NCBI GenBank assembly: GCA_018818265.1
Contig: JAHISN010000078.1
Location: forward strand, 1 to 51,842
Source of the DNA: Patescibacteria group bacterium
GTDB lineage: Bacteria > Patescibacteriota > 4484-211
Direction: 5' to 3'
Length of the DNA stretch: 51,842 nucleotides
The translations under genes and the position numbers were made by a program. Of this stretch, positions 1-48,856 are shown in pieces. The number at the start of each line of letters is the position of its first letter. Position 1 is the stretch's first letter. Under the pieces are notes generated by a model. The model searched no databases. It saw only the letters and a program-made list of their open reading frames with translations, and was not told the origin of the DNA.

Positions 1-15
1 AGAGGCAAATATCGC

Positions 16-466
16 ATGTCGTCAGCACGTTTAAAAAATTGGAATTATGCAAATAATGGCTACTATTTCACAACCATTTGCGTCCAAAATAGGGGTGGAA
101 TTGGGTGAATTTGTGGTTATGCCCAACCATATTCACGGAATCGTTATTATCAATAATCCCCCGGTGCGGTCGCAATGGAATAATGTAAATAATGTAGAGA
201 CGCAAAATCTTGCGTCTCTACGAAAACGAAAACAACAACCGGGCAACCAATTCGGCCCCCAATCACGAAATTTAGGATCAATTGTCCGCGGATTTAAAAT
301 CGGGGTTAAAAAATGGACAACCATAAACAATGTTGATTTTGCATGGCAACCTAGATATTATGACCATATCATTCGCAATGAGAAATCGTTAAATCATATT
401 CGTCAATATATTACTGAAAATCCCGCAAAATGGGCAGAAGACCGTAACAATCCTGAAAATTTATAG
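16..466 (+). pseudogene. RAYT-like (REP-associated) IS200/IS605-family Y1/HUH transposase, disrupted by an internal deletion plus frameshift
   Basis: Frame 1 from ATG 16 reads MSSARLKNWNYANNGYYFTTICVQNR and stops at 106-108. Frame 2 continues from about 95 with VELGEFVVMPNHIHGIV (HUH motif) and ends WQPRYYDHIIRNEKSLNHIRQYITENPAKW (Tyr helix). The segment normally lying between the two blocks is missing. Confidence 0.6.
194..221 (+). repeat. GTAG-headed perfect palindrome (12-bp stem, 4-nt loop) embedded in the RAYT-like ORF
   Basis: GTAGAGACGCAA-AATC-TTGCGTCTCTAC read directly. It encodes NVETQNLASLR between the HUH and Tyr motifs. Confidence 0.85.
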
Positions 467-473
467 TGAAAAC

Positions 474-1475
474 ATGACCAAACTCACTCAACCGCCAAAC
501 AACCAAATTATCATCTACCAAACTGAGGATGGGCAGGCAAAAATTGAGGTCCGCTTTGAAAAAGAAACTGTCTGGCTCACTCAGGATCAAATGGCGGAGC
601 TTTTTGACAAGGCAAAATCTACAATAAACGAACACATACAAAATATTTATGACGAAAAAGAGCTTGTTGCAAGCCAAACAATGAGAAAATTCGGAATTTC
701 CGAATTTTCTACCAAACCCACCAATTACTATCACCTTGATGTGATTATTTCGGTAGGATATCGCGTTAAATCTCAAAGAGGCACTCAATTTCGCATCTGG
801 GCGACTAAACGTCTTCGCGACTATATTATCAAGGGCTTTGCGCTAGATGATGAACGAATGAAACAGGGCGGGCAGCGCGCACGCTATTTTGAAGAACTGC
901 TTCAGCGAGTCCGCGATATTCGCTCTAGCGAGCGCAATTTCTATCAAAAAGTAACCGATATTTACGCCACTAGTATAGACTACAGAAAAGACGACAAGTT
1001 AACCAAAGAATTTTTCGCCACGGTACAGAATAAGATGCACTATGCCGTGCATGGACACACTGCCGCAGAGATTGTTGCTGGACGCGCCGACAGCGCAAGG
1101 CTGATGATGGGGCTAACAAATTTTAAGGGGAAATATATTACTACCGGCGACACAAAAATCGCTAAAAATTATCTTTCCGAAAAAGAGCTTCATCAACTGA
1201 ATTTAATTGTTTCTCTTTATCTGGACTTTGCTGAACTGCAAGCAACAAGCGAGCAACCGATGAGAATGAATGGCTGGGTAGCAAAACTGGATGATTTTTT
1301 ACAATTAAGCGAGAAAAAACTCTTAACCCACGCCGGAAAGGTTAGTGCGAAGACAGCAAGTAGAAAAGCGGAAGTGGAATTTGTTAAGTATAGAAAAAAG
1401 CAGGATAAACAATATATCTCCGATTTTGACCGAGTTGCCACAAAACTATTAAAGAAAGGTAAAAAACAGACATGA
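474..1475 (+). CDS. RhuM family protein
   Basis: The N-terminus IIIYQTEDGQAKIEVRFEKETVWLTQDQMAELF and the block YHLDVIISVGYRVKSQRGTQFRIWATKRLRDYIIKGF are typical of RhuM-family proteins. Confidence 0.8.
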   Translation: MTKLTQPPNNQIIIYQTEDGQAKIEVRFEKETVWLTQDQMAELFDKAKSTINEHIQNIYDEKELVASQTMRKFGISEFSTKPTNYYHLDVIISVGYRVKSQRGTQFRIWATKRLRDYIIKGFALDDERMKQGGQRARYFEELLQRVRDIRSSERNFYQKVTDIYATSIDYRKDDKLTKEFFATVQNKMHYAVHGHTAAEIVAGRADSARLMMGLTNFKGKYITTGDTKIAKNYLSEKELHQLNLIVSLYLDFAELQATSEQPMRMNGWVAKLDDFLQLSEKKLLTHAGKVSAKTASRKAEVEFVKYRKKQDKQYISDFDRVATKLLKKGKKQT

Positions 1476-2674
1476 CCACACAAATTAAATGTCCCCACTG
1501 CAATAAGCTGTTTGAGCCGACGGAGGCATATAAGCATGAGCTGGAGGAGAGATTGCTTAGTGAAGCTCAAGCAAAGCATCAAAAAGAGGTTGAACAGCTA
1601 AAGCGCGAGAAACAGGAACTTACTCAGTCCAAAGAAAAAGAGATTGAGGAAGTTAAGAGAAAAACCGCGGAAACTGTCCGTAAAGAGGCTGGAGATAAAA
1701 TTAGGCGAGAATTGGAAACTAGAATCACTTCAACACAGGAAGAGGCGGAAGCTCGCGAGAAACAAAATAAAGAACTTCAAGATCAACTTAAAGATATGTT
1801 CAAGCAGATGCGCGGGCTTAAAGACGAAAAAGATAAACTGTCTATTGAGTACGAAAAGAAGTTATTGGAAGACCAAGATAAAATCAAACAGGCTGCCAAA
1901 GAAGAGGTTCGAGAGGAATTGGATATGAAAATAGCTGAAAAGGATAAGAAATTGAACGATGCTCTCAAGGCTAATGAAGAGTTACGCCGTAAATTGGAGC
2001 AAGGCTCTCAGCAACTTCAAGGCGAAGTGCAAGAATTAAAATTGGAAGAATTATTAAAAGAGGCATTCCCTTTTGACGAGATTAAGGAAGTGCCAAAAGG
2101 TGTCAGCGGCGCCGACACTCTCCAGATAGTCCGTACCCAGACAGGTGTTGCTTGTGGTGCTATCCTTTGGGAATCTAAACGAACAAAAAACTGGTCGCCC
2201 GGCTGGATACAAAAACTTAAGGAAGATCAACGAGCGATTAAGGCGGAATTAGCGGTGCTAGTATCGACAGCTTTGCCTCAAAGCGTCCGTTCTTTCGGGA
2301 TGATAGAGTCTGTATTTGTAACTGATTTATCGTCTGCTTTGAATGTTGCGCATCTACTAAGGCTGCAACTGATGAAAGTACACTCGGCTTATGTGGCAAA
2401 CAGCAATAAAGCAACAAAGGCGGAGGTGGTCTATAACTACCTTATTAGCAATGAGTTTACGCAGAGGATTGAAGTTTGGGTTGAGTATTTTAGGAATCGG
2501 CAGGAAAAGCTAAATAAAGAACGCGTTTATTTCAACAAAAAATGGCAAGAAGAAGAAAAGAATATACAAAAAGTAATTGCAAACACAGCGGGGATTTATG
2601 GCGATTTGCAGGGTTTGATAGGAAATGCTTTGCCAAAAGTGAGCTATCTTGAATTACCAGATTCTACAGATTAA
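1472..2674 (+). CDS. DUF2130-type protein (CxxC N-terminus, long E/K coiled coil, C-terminal PD-(D/E)xK-like core)
   Basis: MTTQIKCPHCNKLFEP is followed by about 170 aa of E/K-rich heptad-like sequence. The C-terminal part carries GADTL...ILWESKRTKNWS, a D...ExK pattern. ATGA overlap with the upstream gene. Confidence 0.7.
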   Translation: MTTQIKCPHCNKLFEPTEAYKHELEERLLSEAQAKHQKEVEQLKREKQELTQSKEKEIEEVKRKTAETVRKEAGDKIRRELETRITSTQEEAEAREKQNKELQDQLKDMFKQMRGLKDEKDKLSIEYEKKLLEDQDKIKQAAKEEVREELDMKIAEKDKKLNDALKANEELRRKLEQGSQQLQGEVQELKLEELLKEAFPFDEIKEVPKGVSGADTLQIVRTQTGVACGAILWESKRTKNWSPGWIQKLKEDQRAIKAELAVLVSTALPQSVRSFGMIESVFVTDLSSALNVAHLLRLQLMKVHSAYVANSNKATKAEVVYNYLISNEFTQRIEVWVEYFRNRQEKLNKERVYFNKKWQEEEKNIQKVIANTAGIYGDLQGLIGNALPKVSYLELPDSTD

Positions 2675-3361: not shown

Positions 3362-3512
3362 TTGTAGCGGCGGCGCTTCCACGCGATGCCGCATGGCGTC
3401 GTAGCGCCGCGCCACGTCTGACGTGGCCGCGCCAGAAAGGGCCGCCTTCTTCGGATGCTAGGCTTCAGCCAGAGGCTGATCCGCCTTTGGCGGAAAAGCC
3501 TAGCCGCTACAA
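3362..3512. repeat. GC-rich composite REP-like element bounded by TTGTAGCGGC / GCCGCTACAA
   Basis: Left part is GTAG plus the imperfect palindrome GCGGCGCTTCCACGCGATGC-C-GCATGGCGTCGTAGCGCCGC. Middle part is GCCACGT-CTG-ACGTGGC. Right 56 nt (3457-3512) are identical to 46074-46129. Confidence 0.85.
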
Positions 3513-4158: not shown

Positions 4159-4737
4159 ATGAAGATCTTTTTTATTCGCCACGGGGAAGCCATGGACGAT
4201 ATAAATGATGAATATGGAGGATGGCACGATCCCGACCTTAGCCCAAAGGGATGGGTACAGGCCGTGGAGCTTGGTTTAAAGCTTAAGAGCAAAGGTCTTA
4301 AGCCGGATATTATTCTGACTTCTCCCCTTAAGAGAGCAGTTCAAACGGCTCAGGCTATTGGGGAAGTATTGAGCACAGAAGTGGAAGTATTTCAATATAT
4401 TAAAGAAAGAAACACTTACGGTTTACTTTGCGGTTTGAACAAAACCGAGGCAAAGGAAAATTATCCAGAGCTTGTGGAGGCATATGAACAAGACGAAGAG
4501 GTCCTTGGATATGAGTCTTACGAATTTGTTCTTAAAAGGATAAAAATAGCCCTCGAGAAAATCCAGCAGAGGACCGAACAAACGATTATTTGCGCAAGCC
4601 ACAGCAAGTTTCTAAAAGCTATGCTGGAAGAGATCTTCAATAAGTCAATTAAAGACATGAGCAAAAGCGCAATTATTGAGATTTTAGTCAAAGATAGCAA
4701 GCTGGAAATTGTTTCAATGGAGGGTGTAGAAGAATAA
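4159..4737 (+). CDS. Histidine phosphatase (phosphoglycerate mutase-like) family protein
   Basis: N-terminal MKIFFIRHGEA (RHG motif), SPLKRAVQTA, and a late SH motif. Confidence 0.8.
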   Translation: MKIFFIRHGEAMDDINDEYGGWHDPDLSPKGWVQAVELGLKLKSKGLKPDIILTSPLKRAVQTAQAIGEVLSTEVEVFQYIKERNTYGLLCGLNKTEAKENYPELVEAYEQDEEVLGYESYEFVLKRIKIALEKIQQRTEQTIICASHSKFLKAMLEEIFNKSIKDMSKSAIIEILVKDSKLEIVSMEGVEE

Positions 4738-15860: not shown

Positions 15861-15941
15861 CTAGCCTTTTAGCTTCGCTAGCTTATTAGGAATACCTAGT
15901 GAAGCTAGTAAGTTAATGAAGCTAATGAAGCTAATGAAGCT
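15861..15941 (+). repeat. AGCT-word hairpin (rplN-rplX spacer)
   Basis: Left arm CTAGCCTTTTAGCTTCGCTAGCTTATTAGG. Right arm CCTAGTGAAGCTAGTAAGTTAATGAAGCTAATGAAGCTAATGAAGCT, running into ATG 15942. Confidence 0.85.
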
Positions 15942-16265
15942 ATGACAACAAACAAACTCGGAATCAAAAAGGGCGATAAAGTTCAAGTTATTACCGGGAA
16001 CTACCGCGGCAAACAAGGAGTTGTAGAGCGCGCACTGCCGAAAGAGAGGAAGGTTGTTGTTTCGGGCATTAACATCGTTAAGAGACATATGAAACCGCGC
16101 GGACAGCAAAAACCCGGTGGCATTATTGAAATAACCAAGCCCATTGATGTATCCAAGGTTATGTTCGTTTGTCCGAGTTGCAGCCAAAAAACACGAATCG
16201 GATACGACGCGAAAGGAAAAGAAAAGCATCGTATTTGCAAGAAATGCGGCAAGACAATTAGCTAA
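15942..16265 (+). CDS. rplX: 50S ribosomal protein L24 (with C-terminal CxxC...CxxC)
   Basis: KKGDKVQVITGNYRGKQGVV (KOW) and CPSC...CKKC. Confidence 0.93.
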   Translation: MTTNKLGIKKGDKVQVITGNYRGKQGVVERALPKERKVVVSGINIVKRHMKPRGQQKPGGIIEITKPIDVSKVMFVCPSCSQKTRIGYDAKGKEKHRICKKCGKTIS

Positions 16266-16355
16266 TTAGCTTATAGCTTGATTAGCTTTTTAGATGTACC
16301 CATCAGTCTAACTAAACTAATAAGCTAATGAAGCTAGTAAGCTAACGAAGCTAAC
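16262..16355 (+). repeat. AGCT-word hairpin (rplX-rplE spacer)
   Basis: Left arm CTAATTAGCTTATAGCTTGATTAGCTTTTTAG. Right arm ACTAATAAGCTAATGAAGCTAGTAAGCTAACGAAGCTAAC. Confidence 0.85.
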
Positions 16356-16358
16356 AAA

Positions 16359-16910
16359 ATGTCTCGACTTAAAGATCTATACCAAAAGAAAATAGTTCCT
16401 GAACTCCAAAAAGAACTTGGCCTCTCAAGTTTCTATCAAGTGCCGCAATTATCAAAGGTTGTCTTAAATATGGGAGTGGGAAAAGCAGTAAAGGACAAAA
16501 AGGAATTAGAAGAGGCCGCGGCAGACTTAAGAGTGATTACTGGACAGCAACCAGCAATTACTCGCGCGAAAAAATCAATTTCGAGCTTTATGCTTCAAGC
16601 AGGGATGCCTATCGGCTGTATGGTTACGTTAAGACGCCAGAGGATGTATGAATTTTTGGATAAACTGTATAATATCATCTTACCTCGCACGCGTGATTTT
16701 CATGGCCTCGAGGTTAAAGGCTTCGATGGTCAGGGAAACTATTCTCTGGGCTTAACCGAACAAACTGTTTTCCCTGAAATTGATCCCAACAATGTTGCCA
16801 AAATCCGCGGGTTACAGATAACAGTTGTTACTACAGCAGGCAACAATCAAAAGGCGGAGTTATTGCTGAGAAAGTTAGGATGCCCATTACAGAAGCGTGA
16901 AGAAAATTAA
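16359..16910 (+). CDS. rplE: 50S ribosomal protein L5
   Basis: [21 protein letters not shown]...[15 protein letters not shown]. Confidence 0.96.
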
Positions 16911-19263: not shown

Positions 19264-19308
19264 AACTTTTTCCGCCAGAGGCGGATCAGCCCTTGGCTGA
19301 AACTTGAA
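19264..19308 (+). repeat. 45-nt double-hairpin module identical to 2827-2871
   Basis: AACTTTTTCCGCCAGAGGCGGATCAGCCCTTGGCTGAAACTTGAA, ending 2 nt before the rplO ATG. Confidence 0.9.
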
Positions 19309-27690: not shown

Positions 27691-27724
27691 AATAGGGTTT
27701 AACCCTATTTTAGGGTTAAACCCT
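27691..27724. promoter_or_regulatory. Two adjacent 13-nt palindromes AGGGTT-N-AACCCT (candidate operator) upstream of the GT2 promoter
   Basis: AATAGGGTTTAACCCTATT (27691-27709) and AGGGTTAAACCCT (27712-27724), with centres 18 nt apart. They are followed by TTGACT (27735-27740), an 18-nt spacer and CATAAT (27759-27764). Confidence 0.45.
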
Positions 27725-34277: not shown

Positions 34278-34520
34278 TTACAATCCAATTAACTTCAATA
34301 ACTCTTCCATCCTTCCCTGACTAAGGCCGACACAATAGACATAAAGGCTAAAGATAGCGGTTAACCAAAAAAGGGTAAAATGGGGGAGCCATTTTCGAAA
34401 CCATTGCCGAAACCATTGCCGAAACCATTGCCGAAACCATTGCCGAAACCATTGCCGAAACCATTGCCGAAACCATTGCCGAAACCATTGCTCCCGCAAT
34501 TTGGGTTTAACTGATTCCAT
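34278..34520 (-). CDS. Small membrane-anchored protein with a (QWFR)8 repeat
   Basis: MESVKPKLRE-(QWFR)x8-KWLPHFTLFWLTAIFSLYVYCVGL. Lies 72 nt upstream of, and co-oriented with, the GT-C-like gene. Confidence 0.5.
   Translation of the reverse strand: MESVKPKLREQWFRQWFRQWFRQWFRQWFRQWFRQWFRQWFRKWLPHFTLFWLTAIFSLYVYCVGLSQGRMEELLKLIGL
34396..34491. repeat. Perfect tandem repeat, 12 nt x 8 (CGAAACCATTGC)
   Basis: Eight identical units counted directly. They are in frame within ORF 34278-34520. Confidence 0.95.
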
Positions 34521-40759: not shown

Positions 40760-40846
40760 TAGCTTTTTAGCTTTTAGATTCATTAGCTTGTTAGATTAAG
40801 AAAAAAAACTAAGAAGCTAGTGAAGCTAACGAAGCTATCAGCTAAT
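40760..40846 (+). repeat. AGCT-word hairpin (rpmJ-rpsM spacer)
   Basis: Left arm TAGCTTTTTAGCTTTTAGATTCATTAGCTTGTTAG. Right arm CTAAGAAGCTAGTGAAGCTAACGAAGCTATCAGCTAA. Confidence 0.85.
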
Positions 40847-41254: not shown

Positions 41255-41356
41255 TTTATAGCTTATAGCTGCATTAGCTTATTAGGTCAGAAACAGAAAA
41301 CCAAGAGACTAATCAGCTAGTGAAGCTAACGCAGCTAGCGAAGCTAGCTGGCTAAT
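41255..41356 (+). repeat. AGCT-word hairpin (rpsM-rpsK spacer)
   Basis: Left arm TTTATAGCTTATAGCTGCATTAGCTTATTAGG. Right arm CTAATCAGCTAGTGAAGCTAACGCAGCTAGCGAAGCTAGCTGGCTAA. The 17-mer AGCTAGTGAAGCTAACG is shared with 40815-40831. Confidence 0.85.
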
Positions 41357-41763: not shown

Positions 41764-41869
41764 CAGCTTCGCTAGCTTATAGCTTCGTTAGCTTGTTACG
41801 CATAAGAGGAAAACTAACAAGCTAGTGAGACTGATAAAGCTAATGAAGCTAACGAACCTAGCAAGCTAA
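41764..41869 (+). repeat. AGCT-word hairpin (rpsK-rpsD spacer)
   Basis: Left arm CAGCTTCGCTAGCTTATAGCTTCGTTAGCTTGTTA. Right arm CTAACAAGCTAGTGAGACTGATAAAGCTAATGAAGCTAACGAACCTAGCAAGCTAA. Confidence 0.85.
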
Positions 41870-46021: not shown

Positions 46022-46129
46022 TTGTAGCGGCGGGTCTTTAGACCCGCGTCAGGAGAGATTACGTCCTTCTGTCGCTAGGCTTCAGCCAGAGGCTGATCCG
46101 CCTTTGGCGGAAAAGCCTAGCCGCTACAA
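46022..46129. repeat. Composite REP-like element bounded by TTGTAGCGGC / GCCGCTACAA
   Basis: Left part is GTAG plus GCGGGTC-TTTA-GACCCGC. The right 56 nt are identical to 3457-3512. The outer flanks CAAAACAAACTTAC (about 45972) and CATGTAAATTTGTTTTG (46139-46155) are also inverted. Confidence 0.85.
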
Positions 46130-47384: not shown

Positions 47385-48785
47385 ATGAGCCAGTCATCTC
47401 CCAGCTCCTTTCCAAAATCTCCGCAAGAAACCAAGCAAATCTGGCAAAGTGTTCTAGGCCAAATCGAATTGAAACATTCGGCATCAATTGTTAATACATG
47501 GTTCAACAATACCCATTTGGAAAGTATCAACAAAAGCTCCGCAGTTATTTCCTGTCAATCACCATATACTCAAGATGTACTTCAAAAACGCTACAATAAA
47601 ACAATTGTTGAGTGTCTGGAAAAATCAACTCAGAAAAAGCTAGATTTAGAGTTTATTATTCAAAAAACTAAAGAAGGCCCGGATTCTGGCCCCTTATTTG
47701 ATCAGACTCCAGAAGAAGCAACCATTGGCGATAATTTCAAAACCCACGAAGAACACCAACACAATGTTAATCCGCGGTTTACCTTTGAAAATTTTGTCGT
47801 TGGTAATTGCAACCGCGTCGCCCACGCCGCCGCCTTAGCTGTTACCTCCGACCCGGGCACTGCTTACAATCCCTTATTCATTCACGGTGGATCAGGAATG
47901 GGAAAGTCCCATCTGTTGCACGCCATTGGCAACCATCTCCTTCAAAACCCAAAATGTGACCATCTATTGTGCTTCCCTGTAGAAACATTTATTAACGATT
48001 TTATAGACTCAATCCGCTATAAAAAAACTAAAGAATTTAAAAAGAAATACCGCCAATCCGACGGCCTGCTTATTGATGACATTCAGTTCATTGGCGGCAA
48101 CAAGATTTCCACTCAAGAAGAATTTTTTCATACTTTTAACGAACTCTATAGCGGCAATCGACAAATCATTATTTGTTCCGATCGGCCACCGGAAGAAATT
48201 GATCAATTAACTAAAAGACTTGTGACACGTTTTGCCGGGGGACTAATGGTAGAAATTAGCCCTCCCGACTTTGAAACCCGCCTGGCAATCATCCAAACCA
48301 AAGCCGCCGTGCTAGGAATGGATTTTAATACGGAAAGCGCCGAATTCGTAGCCCAATGCACCGAATCTAGTATACGAGAAATTGAGGGGATTCTTTTAAA
48401 AATTCGCAGCGAAACACTAGTCCGTGAACTCACTCCTACTTTGGGAGTTATTAAAAGCATCTTGATTGACAACAATTCAACAAAGAAAAATAAACAGACA
48501 ATGACTCCTGAATTAATTTTTAGATTAGTTAACGAGAGATTCGGCACCACCATGTCACAGCTGTGCGGACGGCGTCGCAAATCCGAAATTGTTATCCCGC
48601 GACAAATCGCCATGTATTTACTTCGCAACGACTTGGGTCTAAACCTGGAACATATCGGAGACCTGCTAGGAGGAAGAGACCATACCACAGTAATGCACGG
48701 CACCGACAAAATCAGTAGTTTATTAAAAAAGAAGAAACCTCTTATCTGCGAGGCAGTAAGATATATAAGACAGGAGATTTATTAG
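47385..48785 (+). CDS. dnaA: Chromosomal replication initiator protein DnaA
   Basis: FENFVVGNCNRVAHAAA, GGSGMGKSHLLHAIGN, LIDDIQF, C-terminal HTH GGRDHTTVMHG. Confidence 0.96.
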   Translation: MSQSSPSSFPKSPQETKQIWQSVLGQIELKHSASIVNTWFNNTHLESINKSSAVISCQSPYTQDVLQKRYNKTIVECLEKSTQKKLDLEFIIQKTKEGPDSGPLFDQTPEEATIGDNFKTHEEHQHNVNPRFTFENFVVGNCNRVAHAAALAVTSDPGTAYNPLFIHGGSGMGKSHLLHAIGNHLLQNPKCDHLLCFPVETFINDFIDSIRYKKTKEFKKKYRQSDGLLIDDIQFIGGNKISTQEEFFHTFNELYSGNRQIIICSDRPPEEIDQLTKRLVTRFAGGLMVEISPPDFETRLAIIQTKAAVLGMDFNTESAEFVAQCTESSIREIEGILLKIRSETLVRELTPTLGVIKSILIDNNSTKKNKQTMTPELIFRLVNERFGTTMSQLCGRRRKSEIVIPRQIAMYLLRNDLGLNLEHIGDLLGGRDHTTVMHGTDKISSLLKKKKPLICEAVRYIRQEIY

Positions 48786-48856
48786 CTTCATTAGCTTCAC
48801 TAGCTTCATTAGCTTCACTAGCTTCATTAGCTTCATTAGCTTTTTAGCTTGTTAGA
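48784..48856 (+). repeat. Tandem 9-mers AGCTTCAYT (about 6 to 8 units), left-arm-only AGCT-word element after dnaA
   Basis: AGCTTCATT AGCTTCACT AGCTTCATT AGCTTCACT AGCTTCATT AGCTTCATT AGCTTTTT AGCTTGTT. No complementary arm lies nearby. Confidence 0.85.

Follow-up and report, generated by a model that had tools for sequence, protein, structure and literature searches.

In-gene REPs were described as a hallmark of subclass 2.4 of the Y1 transposases by Quentin, Siguier, Chandler and Fichant (2018, BMC Genomics 19:475; PMC6006769). In that article, the subclass is defined by the motifs NH[IFV]H, WQ and YIxNNP and by a median length of 194 aa, and recognition of the GTAG foot is assigned to the region of the W motif. 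REPs of subclass 2.4 often have a "double foot", with GT[AG]G at the 5′ end and C[TC]AC at the 3′ end. Its beta3-alphaC insertion varies in length, contains short repeats and lies, in the published model, away from the DNA-binding and catalytic sites; the published reading of the in-gene copies is that of a REP insertion tolerated in a linker (PMC6006769). Bertels et al. (2017; PMC5581495) reported that Group 4 RAYTs are common in Cyanobacteria, Chlorobia and Caldilineae, and that their flanking 16-mers are repeated only to a modest degree. The REP transposase of Escherichia coli, TnpA_REP (subclass 2.2), binds the REP hairpin on single-stranded DNA and requires its GTAG foot (PDB 4ER8; PMC3733652), and it is the only one of these enzymes for which cleavage and strand transfer of single-stranded REPs have been shown (PMC3733652). 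REPs inserted in frame into other genes were described by Di Nocera et al. (2013; PMC3733652). The literature matches to the DNA or peptide sequence itself were confined to unrelated primers.

Since the internal REPs of subclass 2.4 were published in 2018, the phenomenon itself is already known. What we add is a test of synonymous sites, an account of reading frame usage, a prediction of disorder, a metagenome census of one REP type and a decayed example. Tests of third codon positions and of frame usage do not appear in the available text and supplements of PMC6006769.

The DNA analysed here (the window), a 51,842-bp contig, comes from a metagenome-assembled genome named "Patescibacteria group bacterium". 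A RAYT/TnpA_REP gene occupies positions 1-466 in two reading frames, with the break at about 92-95. Our preferred account, which we consider very probable, is that this locus is a pseudogenised subclass 2.4 RAYT that carries an in-frame double-foot REP, the putative substrate of its clade, in a disordered beta3-alphaC loop.

The first-pass annotation of this DNA had proposed a RAYT-like Y1 transposase from the letters of the sequence, and family searches support this assignment. The gene matches Pfam PF01797 (Y1_Tnp) at 26.2 bits, over the cut-off of 23 bits, as well as the NCBIfam model NF047646 REP_Tyr_transpos ("REP-associated tyrosine transposase"; E = 1e-12 to 4e-15) at scores of 48-56 bits, which lie under the 80-bit equivalog cut-off of that model. 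The search for homologues returned 2398 proteins, many of them labelled RayT by their source databases. A profile of the family (alignment A1) matches E. coli TnpA_REP (4ER8; E = 3.6e-6) in an alignment that spans the HuH strand and WQPRF.EH.IRN....YI.NP; the same structure was not reached by a single-sequence phmmer search of the full-length homologue P0003 against the PDB, which gave no match. The AlphaFold (AF2) model of P0003 has a mean pLDDT of 79, with values >90 in the core, and its top fold match is again 4ER8 (E = 1.2e-6), followed by the IS608 and ISDra2 transposases.

All three motifs of the family can be located on the forward strand of the window. The HuH motif NHIH (125-136) fits the subclass 2.4 pattern NH[IFV]H. 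WQPRYYDH (344-367, with WQ at 344-349), which had first been read as the tyrosine motif, is the W motif involved in GTAG recognition according to PMC6006769; the profile alignment to 4ER8 residues 82-123 pairs it with the part of E. coli TnpA_REP that touches the GTAG foot. The catalytic tyrosine lies further downstream in YITENP (407-424), which has the class 2 signature Y---NP, aligns with YIYINP of 4ER8 and departs from the subclass 2.4 consensus YIxNNP at one position (E for N). The gene family is TnpA_Y1 subclass 2.4, which equals RAYT Group 4 of Bertels et al.

The locus shares with described subclass 2.4 members the NH[IFV]H, WQ and Y..NP motifs, a 28-nt GTAG...CTAC REP that lies in frame within the variable beta3-alphaC insertion, a variable linker with short repeats and a patchy distribution over several phyla. 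It differs from them in that the window copy is truncated and frameshifted, has one REP with none flanking it within the window, and resides in a Patescibacteria-group genome. With E. coli TnpA_REP it has in common the Y1 HuH fold and a W-Q...R region that reads the GTAG foot, and by analogy the window family would also act on a single-stranded DNA hairpin. The E. coli REPs, in contrast, flank the gene instead of lying inside it and are long, bulged and single-footed; the E. coli enzyme also has DHLH as its HuH motif, a short linker from HuH to W and a C-terminal extension. TnpA of the IS200/IS605 elements (subclass 1.1) shares the Pfam Y1_Tnp domain, the HuH and tyrosine chemistry and the recognition of DNA hairpins. 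Its signature is Y---Q, whereas the window gene has Y---NP, and IS200 elements occur as multi-copy insertion sequences whose subterminal hairpins are not part of the ORF; an IS200/IS605 transposase was ruled out on the Y motif and on the lack of a second copy in the window. Intragenic REPs and the Rickettsia palindromic elements are likewise short palindromic repeats that are translated in frame at permissive sites (PMC3733652). The genes that host those elements are unrelated ones (uvrA, recB, dnaE), whereas the host gene in the window is the presumed mobilising enzyme.

The N-terminal stub of the gene (1-108, frame 1, forward strand) reads RGKYRMSSARLKNWNYANNGYYFTTICVQNR and then GGIG out of frame up to a stop codon at 106-108, and within it the ORF at 16-108 encodes MSSARLKNWNYANNGYYFTTICVQNRGGIG. 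At the junction (92-95) about 34 codons are absent and the frame switches. The C-terminal two-thirds of the gene (95-466, frame 2, forward strand) run from VELGEFVVMPNHIHG to NPENL, with a stop codon at 464-466. The frame 2 ORF at 47-466, forward strand, encodes a protein of 139 aa (P0001, KKB83_05155) that contains VELGEFVVMPNHIHG...WQPRYYDHIIRNEK, and its meaningful part (VELGEFVVMPNHIHG...WQPRYYDHIIRNEKSLNHIRQYITENPAKW...) begins at about 95. Alignment to full-length homologues of 180-200 aa places the roughly 34 absent residues between TICxxNR and the HuH-bearing strand; in P0003 they read KCYFGNIL...EHFPF. Structurally they are the beta-hairpin and the helix that follow beta1 and precede the HuH strand (elements E50-59 and H61-76 of the P0003 model). 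Both belong to the confident core of that model, and to judge from it the truncated protein is hardly able to adopt the Y1 transposase fold. Because about 34 codons are deleted, the frame is shifted and the longest ORF measures 139 aa, compared with a subclass 2.4 median of ~194 aa that includes an intact upstream sub-domain, the gene is a remnant of a member and not a functional member.

These coordinates reproduce the split between frames 1 and 2, the stop codon at 106-108 and the junction near 91-95 with its lost segment, all of which had been noticed at first pass, and the gene is indeed decayed. The gene start that had been placed at 16 was revised, as the ATG at that position is an internal codon. 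The closest database protein (P0002; 139 aa, 88% identical) is encoded on a contig from another sample, L081, which extends 5′ beyond window position 1 and reads MQHTDPDLEQTKFRGKYRMSSARL..., so the gene starts upstream of the window; L081 supplies the missing 5′ part as MQHTDPDLEQTKF. The gene sits at the extreme end of its contig, the least reliable part of an assembly, and the frameshift and deletion might on this ground be taken for assembly artefacts and the palindrome for a one-off. The same junction is found base for base in L081 (ENA ERZ27247128), an independent assembly of a diverged strain, from which it follows that the break is not an assembly indel, and the palindrome recurs in dozens of homologues. 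We rejected the artefact explanation on the identical junction and regard it as barely credible. In annotation, the ORF at 47-466 deserves the label of RAYT pseudogene.

The palindrome GTAGAGACGCAA-AATC-TTGCGTCTCTAC lies at 194-221, between the HuH motif and the WQ and tyrosine motifs. As a 28-bp double-foot REP, it can be written GTAG-AGACGCAA-AATC-TTGCGTCT-CTAC and is translated in frame as VETQNLASL. The 12-nt arms are 100% complementary around a 4-nt loop, in agreement with the flawless 12-bp stem reported at first, and single-stranded folding gives -13.4 kcal/mol (z = -7.6). The sequence combines a 5′ GTAG foot (GT[AG]G form), a stable stem-loop and a 3′ CTAC foot (C[TC]AC form), and the suggestion that the transposase gene hosts a GTAG-headed hairpin of the type that its enzyme class would recognise is supported by the sequence evidence. 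Table S1 of PMC6006769 lists several of the 28-mers that we saw in the present homologues, and also GTAGAGACGCAATGCATTGCGTCTCTAC from Chlorobium chlorochromatii, a subclass 2.4 double-foot REP whose 12-nt arms are those of the window palindrome.

Within the 51.8-kb window the 28-mer occurs once, against a chance expectation of 0, and neither the arm GTAGAGACGC nor the core hairpin has a further copy; the available sequence thus does not show this REP to be repetitive in the present genome. There is no hairpin between the stop codon of the remnant (466) and the next gene (474), and the 5′ side lies beyond the window. The window holds no second HuH gene, and no Rfam family matches anywhere in it. 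A resemblance of the palindrome core to two dispersed 20-mers (26545 and 31981) had also been noted at first pass. The 20-mers exist, with only the 8-mer AATCTTGC in common with the palindrome; this 8-mer occurs six times in the window where 3.2 are expected, and 9 of 100 shuffles reach six. A relation of the palindrome to the TGTAGTAGC repeats of the window was rejected, since the likeness is at chance level and the arm has no other copy there.

The two 20-mers belong to a second, different population of GTAG-type repeats in the window, which comprises 21 heads of the form TGTA[GA][TC][AG]GC followed by short hairpins (TTGTAGTAGC..., TTGTAGCGGC...). Such heads are found at 3363, 3511(-), 7031(-), 7066(-), 7387, 7459(-), 24846, 26545, 26632, 27586(-), 27594, 31981, 33189(-), 46023, 46128(-) and 48870. 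Several of them form inverted pairs in a REPIN-like arrangement, and the matching RAYT gene is absent from the window. A 34-nt double-hairpin element, TTTTCCGCCAGAGGCGGATCAGCCCTTGGCTGAA, is present in five copies in both orientations (2787-2818, 2831-2864, 3464-3497(-), 19268-19301 and 46081-46114(-)), some of which adjoin TTGTAGCGGC heads. A 9-nt unit (AAGCTAATG or its complement TAGCTTCAT) forms arrays at six sites, again in both orientations (15893-15951, 16322-16371, 40797-40846, 41306-41346, 41811-41860 and 48766-48851), and about nine copies of the 12-nt unit CCATTGCCGAAA stand in tandem at 34389-34496. Two more long, perfect hairpins were seen at 684-710 (13-bp stem), inside a RhuM-family ORF (474-1475), and at 27694-27724 (14-bp stem; AGGGTTTAACCCT-ATT-...). 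The neighbours of the remnant are typical of variable or defence regions (window 474-2674; L081 1-4327): the RhuM-family gene and a DUF2130 gene downstream of it in the window, and genes for an MmeI/Type ISP-like methylase-nuclease and a DUF234 ATPase upstream of it in L081.

We sampled 80 loci from species-representative genomes across many phyla, including Planctomycetota, Bacteroidota, Cyanobacteria, Chloroflexota, Gammaproteobacteria, Spirochaetia and CPR, and counted the 62 in which the HuH and WQ motifs could both be located. A perfect palindrome of at least 8 bp lies in the HuH-WQ linker of 47 of these 62 genes, where we estimate that roughly 0.04 per linker would be expected. The remaining 15 have a short linker and no palindrome in it, which makes the feature predominant and not universal. 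The idea that a palindrome in this linker is a systematic feature is supported.

Most of these palindromes are 28-mers of the form GTAG...CTAC and fall into several sequence types: GTAGAGACGCAAAATTTTGCGTCTCTAC, the type of the window, translated as VETQNFASL; GTAGAGACGCATTGCAATGCGTCTCTAC (VETHCNASL); GTAGAGACGTTGCATGCAACGTCTCTAC (VETLHATSL or RDVACNVST); GTAGGGGCGAAAAATTTTTCGCCCCTAC (VGAKNFSPL); and GTAGGGACAACGCATGCGTTGTCCCTAC (VGTTHALSL). The 30-odd nearest homologues carry the window's own palindrome (VETQN[FL]ASL) and the other 28-mers occur in more distant clades, so that the first-pass statement that homologues bear differing palindromes at this site holds for the distant clades and fails for the nearest relatives. 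The association of palindrome type with protein clade gives a weak signal in mean core identity (0.54 within types, 0.48 between them) and is visible by eye in the alphaC region; no conclusion is drawn from it here. Some homologues carry extra REP copies at the N-terminus, at the C-terminus or in another loop. In L031 (10277-10417; a 21-nt unit repeated 6.7 times) and L072 (382-531; a 30-nt unit repeated five times), as well as in L070, L025 and L069, a single complete palindrome is preceded by half-palindromes that are repeated in tandem and in frame. These arrays may have been left behind by hairpin-dependent slippage, or else by cleavage followed by rejoining.

The peptide VETQN[FL]ASL is near-invariant across the closest 30-odd homologues, as would be expected if it were a functional conserved peptide motif whose coding sequence is palindromic by accident. 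The codons argue otherwise. In 15 genes picked by peptide motif alone, the majority base at the third position has a frequency of 1.00 at eight of the nine codons of V-E-T-Q-N-x-A-S-L and of 0.93 at the ninth, compared with 0.63-0.66 in the MPNHxHG, FGPQS..GV and WQxRFYDH blocks of the same family; invariance at third positions means that synonymous codons are not used. The GTAG occurs in two reading frames: frame 0 (GTA-G..) in 25 loci and frame 1 (x-GT-AG.) in six, which translate the same DNA as RD..V.ST. In no locus is it read in the frame that would create a TAG stop codon. Where residues change they do so in pairs that preserve the stem: in VEAQNFAPL, A replaces T and P replaces S, and in VDTQNLAYL, D replaces E and Y replaces S. 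In other clades unrelated peptides are encoded by equally perfect palindromes. In the P0003 model the linker residues 105-123 have pLDDT <50 compared with >90 in the core, and the linker-encoded peptide is predicted to be disordered. The 28-mer is, moreover, common outside RAYT genes. We rejected a functional peptide motif on third positions, frame usage and the low-pLDDT linker, and consider it extremely unlikely. What is conserved in the linker is the nucleotides and not the peptide, and where database proteins contain the strings VETQNFASLQ, RDxxxxVST and VGAKNFSPL, these represent REPs in translation rather than protein motifs.

The dispersal of the 28-mer was followed in a scan of metagenome contigs with the exact pattern, leaving two loop positions free. 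At least 140 copies were found in at least 120 contigs; among the matches listed, 10 copies lie inside RAYT genes, six within 300 nt of one and 124 elsewhere. A first census of flanks, based on the 12-nt arms and with the surroundings of the genes excluded, gave few copies. With a relaxed core pattern, the copies were seen mostly to abut the genes, and many RAYT genes have further copies directly next to them, including genes that have no internal copy (for example, those of L023, L030 and L040). The palindrome of the window belongs to a dispersed repeat family.

The comparison with L081 also bears on how the remnant has evolved. The two contigs are 100% identical at window positions 1-139 and 415-555, and between these flanks, window 140-414 differs from L081 5084-5368 by 28 substitutions and a 9-nt indel. 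Over the 121 codons of the frame 2 part dN/dS is 0.22, with numerous synonymous changes in WQPRYYDHIIRNEKS. This ratio counts against the pseudogene account, as it is unexpected for a dead gene unless 140-414 was imported. Together with an ORF that is intact in both the window and L081, it would also fit a truncated protein, such as a regulator or DNA-binding fragment, that remains under selection from 47 to 466. Against such a protein, the ORF lacks beta1 in frame and the beta-hairpin and helix of the confidently modelled core, and the confinement of the divergence to 140-414 between identical flanks fits an imported patch. We consider continued selection on a fragment quite improbable. The sequence pattern suggests instead that recombination with a functional allele brought in the patch; the low dN/dS would then reflect the history of the donor.

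The stem is perfect in both contigs, and the loop differs at two positions (AATC in the window, GATT in L081). The lack of stem substitutions in a patch that has diverged by about 10% is weakly significant (P ~0.08, our own estimate). L081 also carries an intergenic perfect palindrome, ACAGACGCAAGATCTTGCGTCTGT (4341-4364), 650 nt upstream of the remnant and directly after the Type ISP/MmeI-like restriction-modification gene; its core arms are as in the internal REP, and it may be a decayed flanking REP.

Under the account that we prefer, that of a pseudogenised subclass 2.4 RAYT with its REP as a passenger, enzymes of this subclass would mobilise the double-foot 28-mer and would act preferentially near their own gene, so that REP copies would land both within the gene and beside it. 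Internal copies would survive only where the protein tolerates about ten extra residues, for which the disordered beta3-alphaC loop would be the only place, and they would have to lie in one of the two frames without the TAG stop codon. A copy would stay perfect either through renewal, by repeated insertion or conversion, or through the constraint of being recognised by the enzyme. In the present genome, the transposase gene is broken and its REP remains as a solitary relic.

The internal REP could alternatively be a selected cis element. It could serve as a master or seed copy that keeps REP and transposase together through horizontal transfer, as a binding or cleavage site by which the RAYT limits its own gene, or as an mRNA hairpin that tunes translation or decay. 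Such a role would agree with the synonymous invariance of the 28-mer across many phyla, when conserved protein blocks vary freely at third positions, with the lack of a further copy in the surrounding +/-10 kb of most loci, and with the perfect stem of the window and L081 in a diverged patch whose loop has changed. The element is nonetheless absent from 15 of the 62 homologues, and its position, copy number and frame vary, with extra copies at termini and in other loops that look like repeated landing and not like a fixed element; the stem comparison itself falls at the weak significance given above. On balance we regard a selected cis element as rather unlikely.

As matters stand, the locus is an unremarkable, decayed representative of a known class. 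It contributes a case from the Patescibacteria group, together with nucleotide-level evidence, to a published, unexplained oddity, namely a domesticated transposase whose coding sequence habitually includes its own target hairpin. If the internal REP were selected, the gene would carry a perfect copy of its substrate on horizontal transfer and could seed a new REP population, and the enzyme might sense or limit its own gene. Selection would also account for the invariance of one 28-mer, synonymous sites included, across RAYT genes from many phyla. A functional internal copy would thereby bear on the persistence and spread of REP-RAYT pairs.
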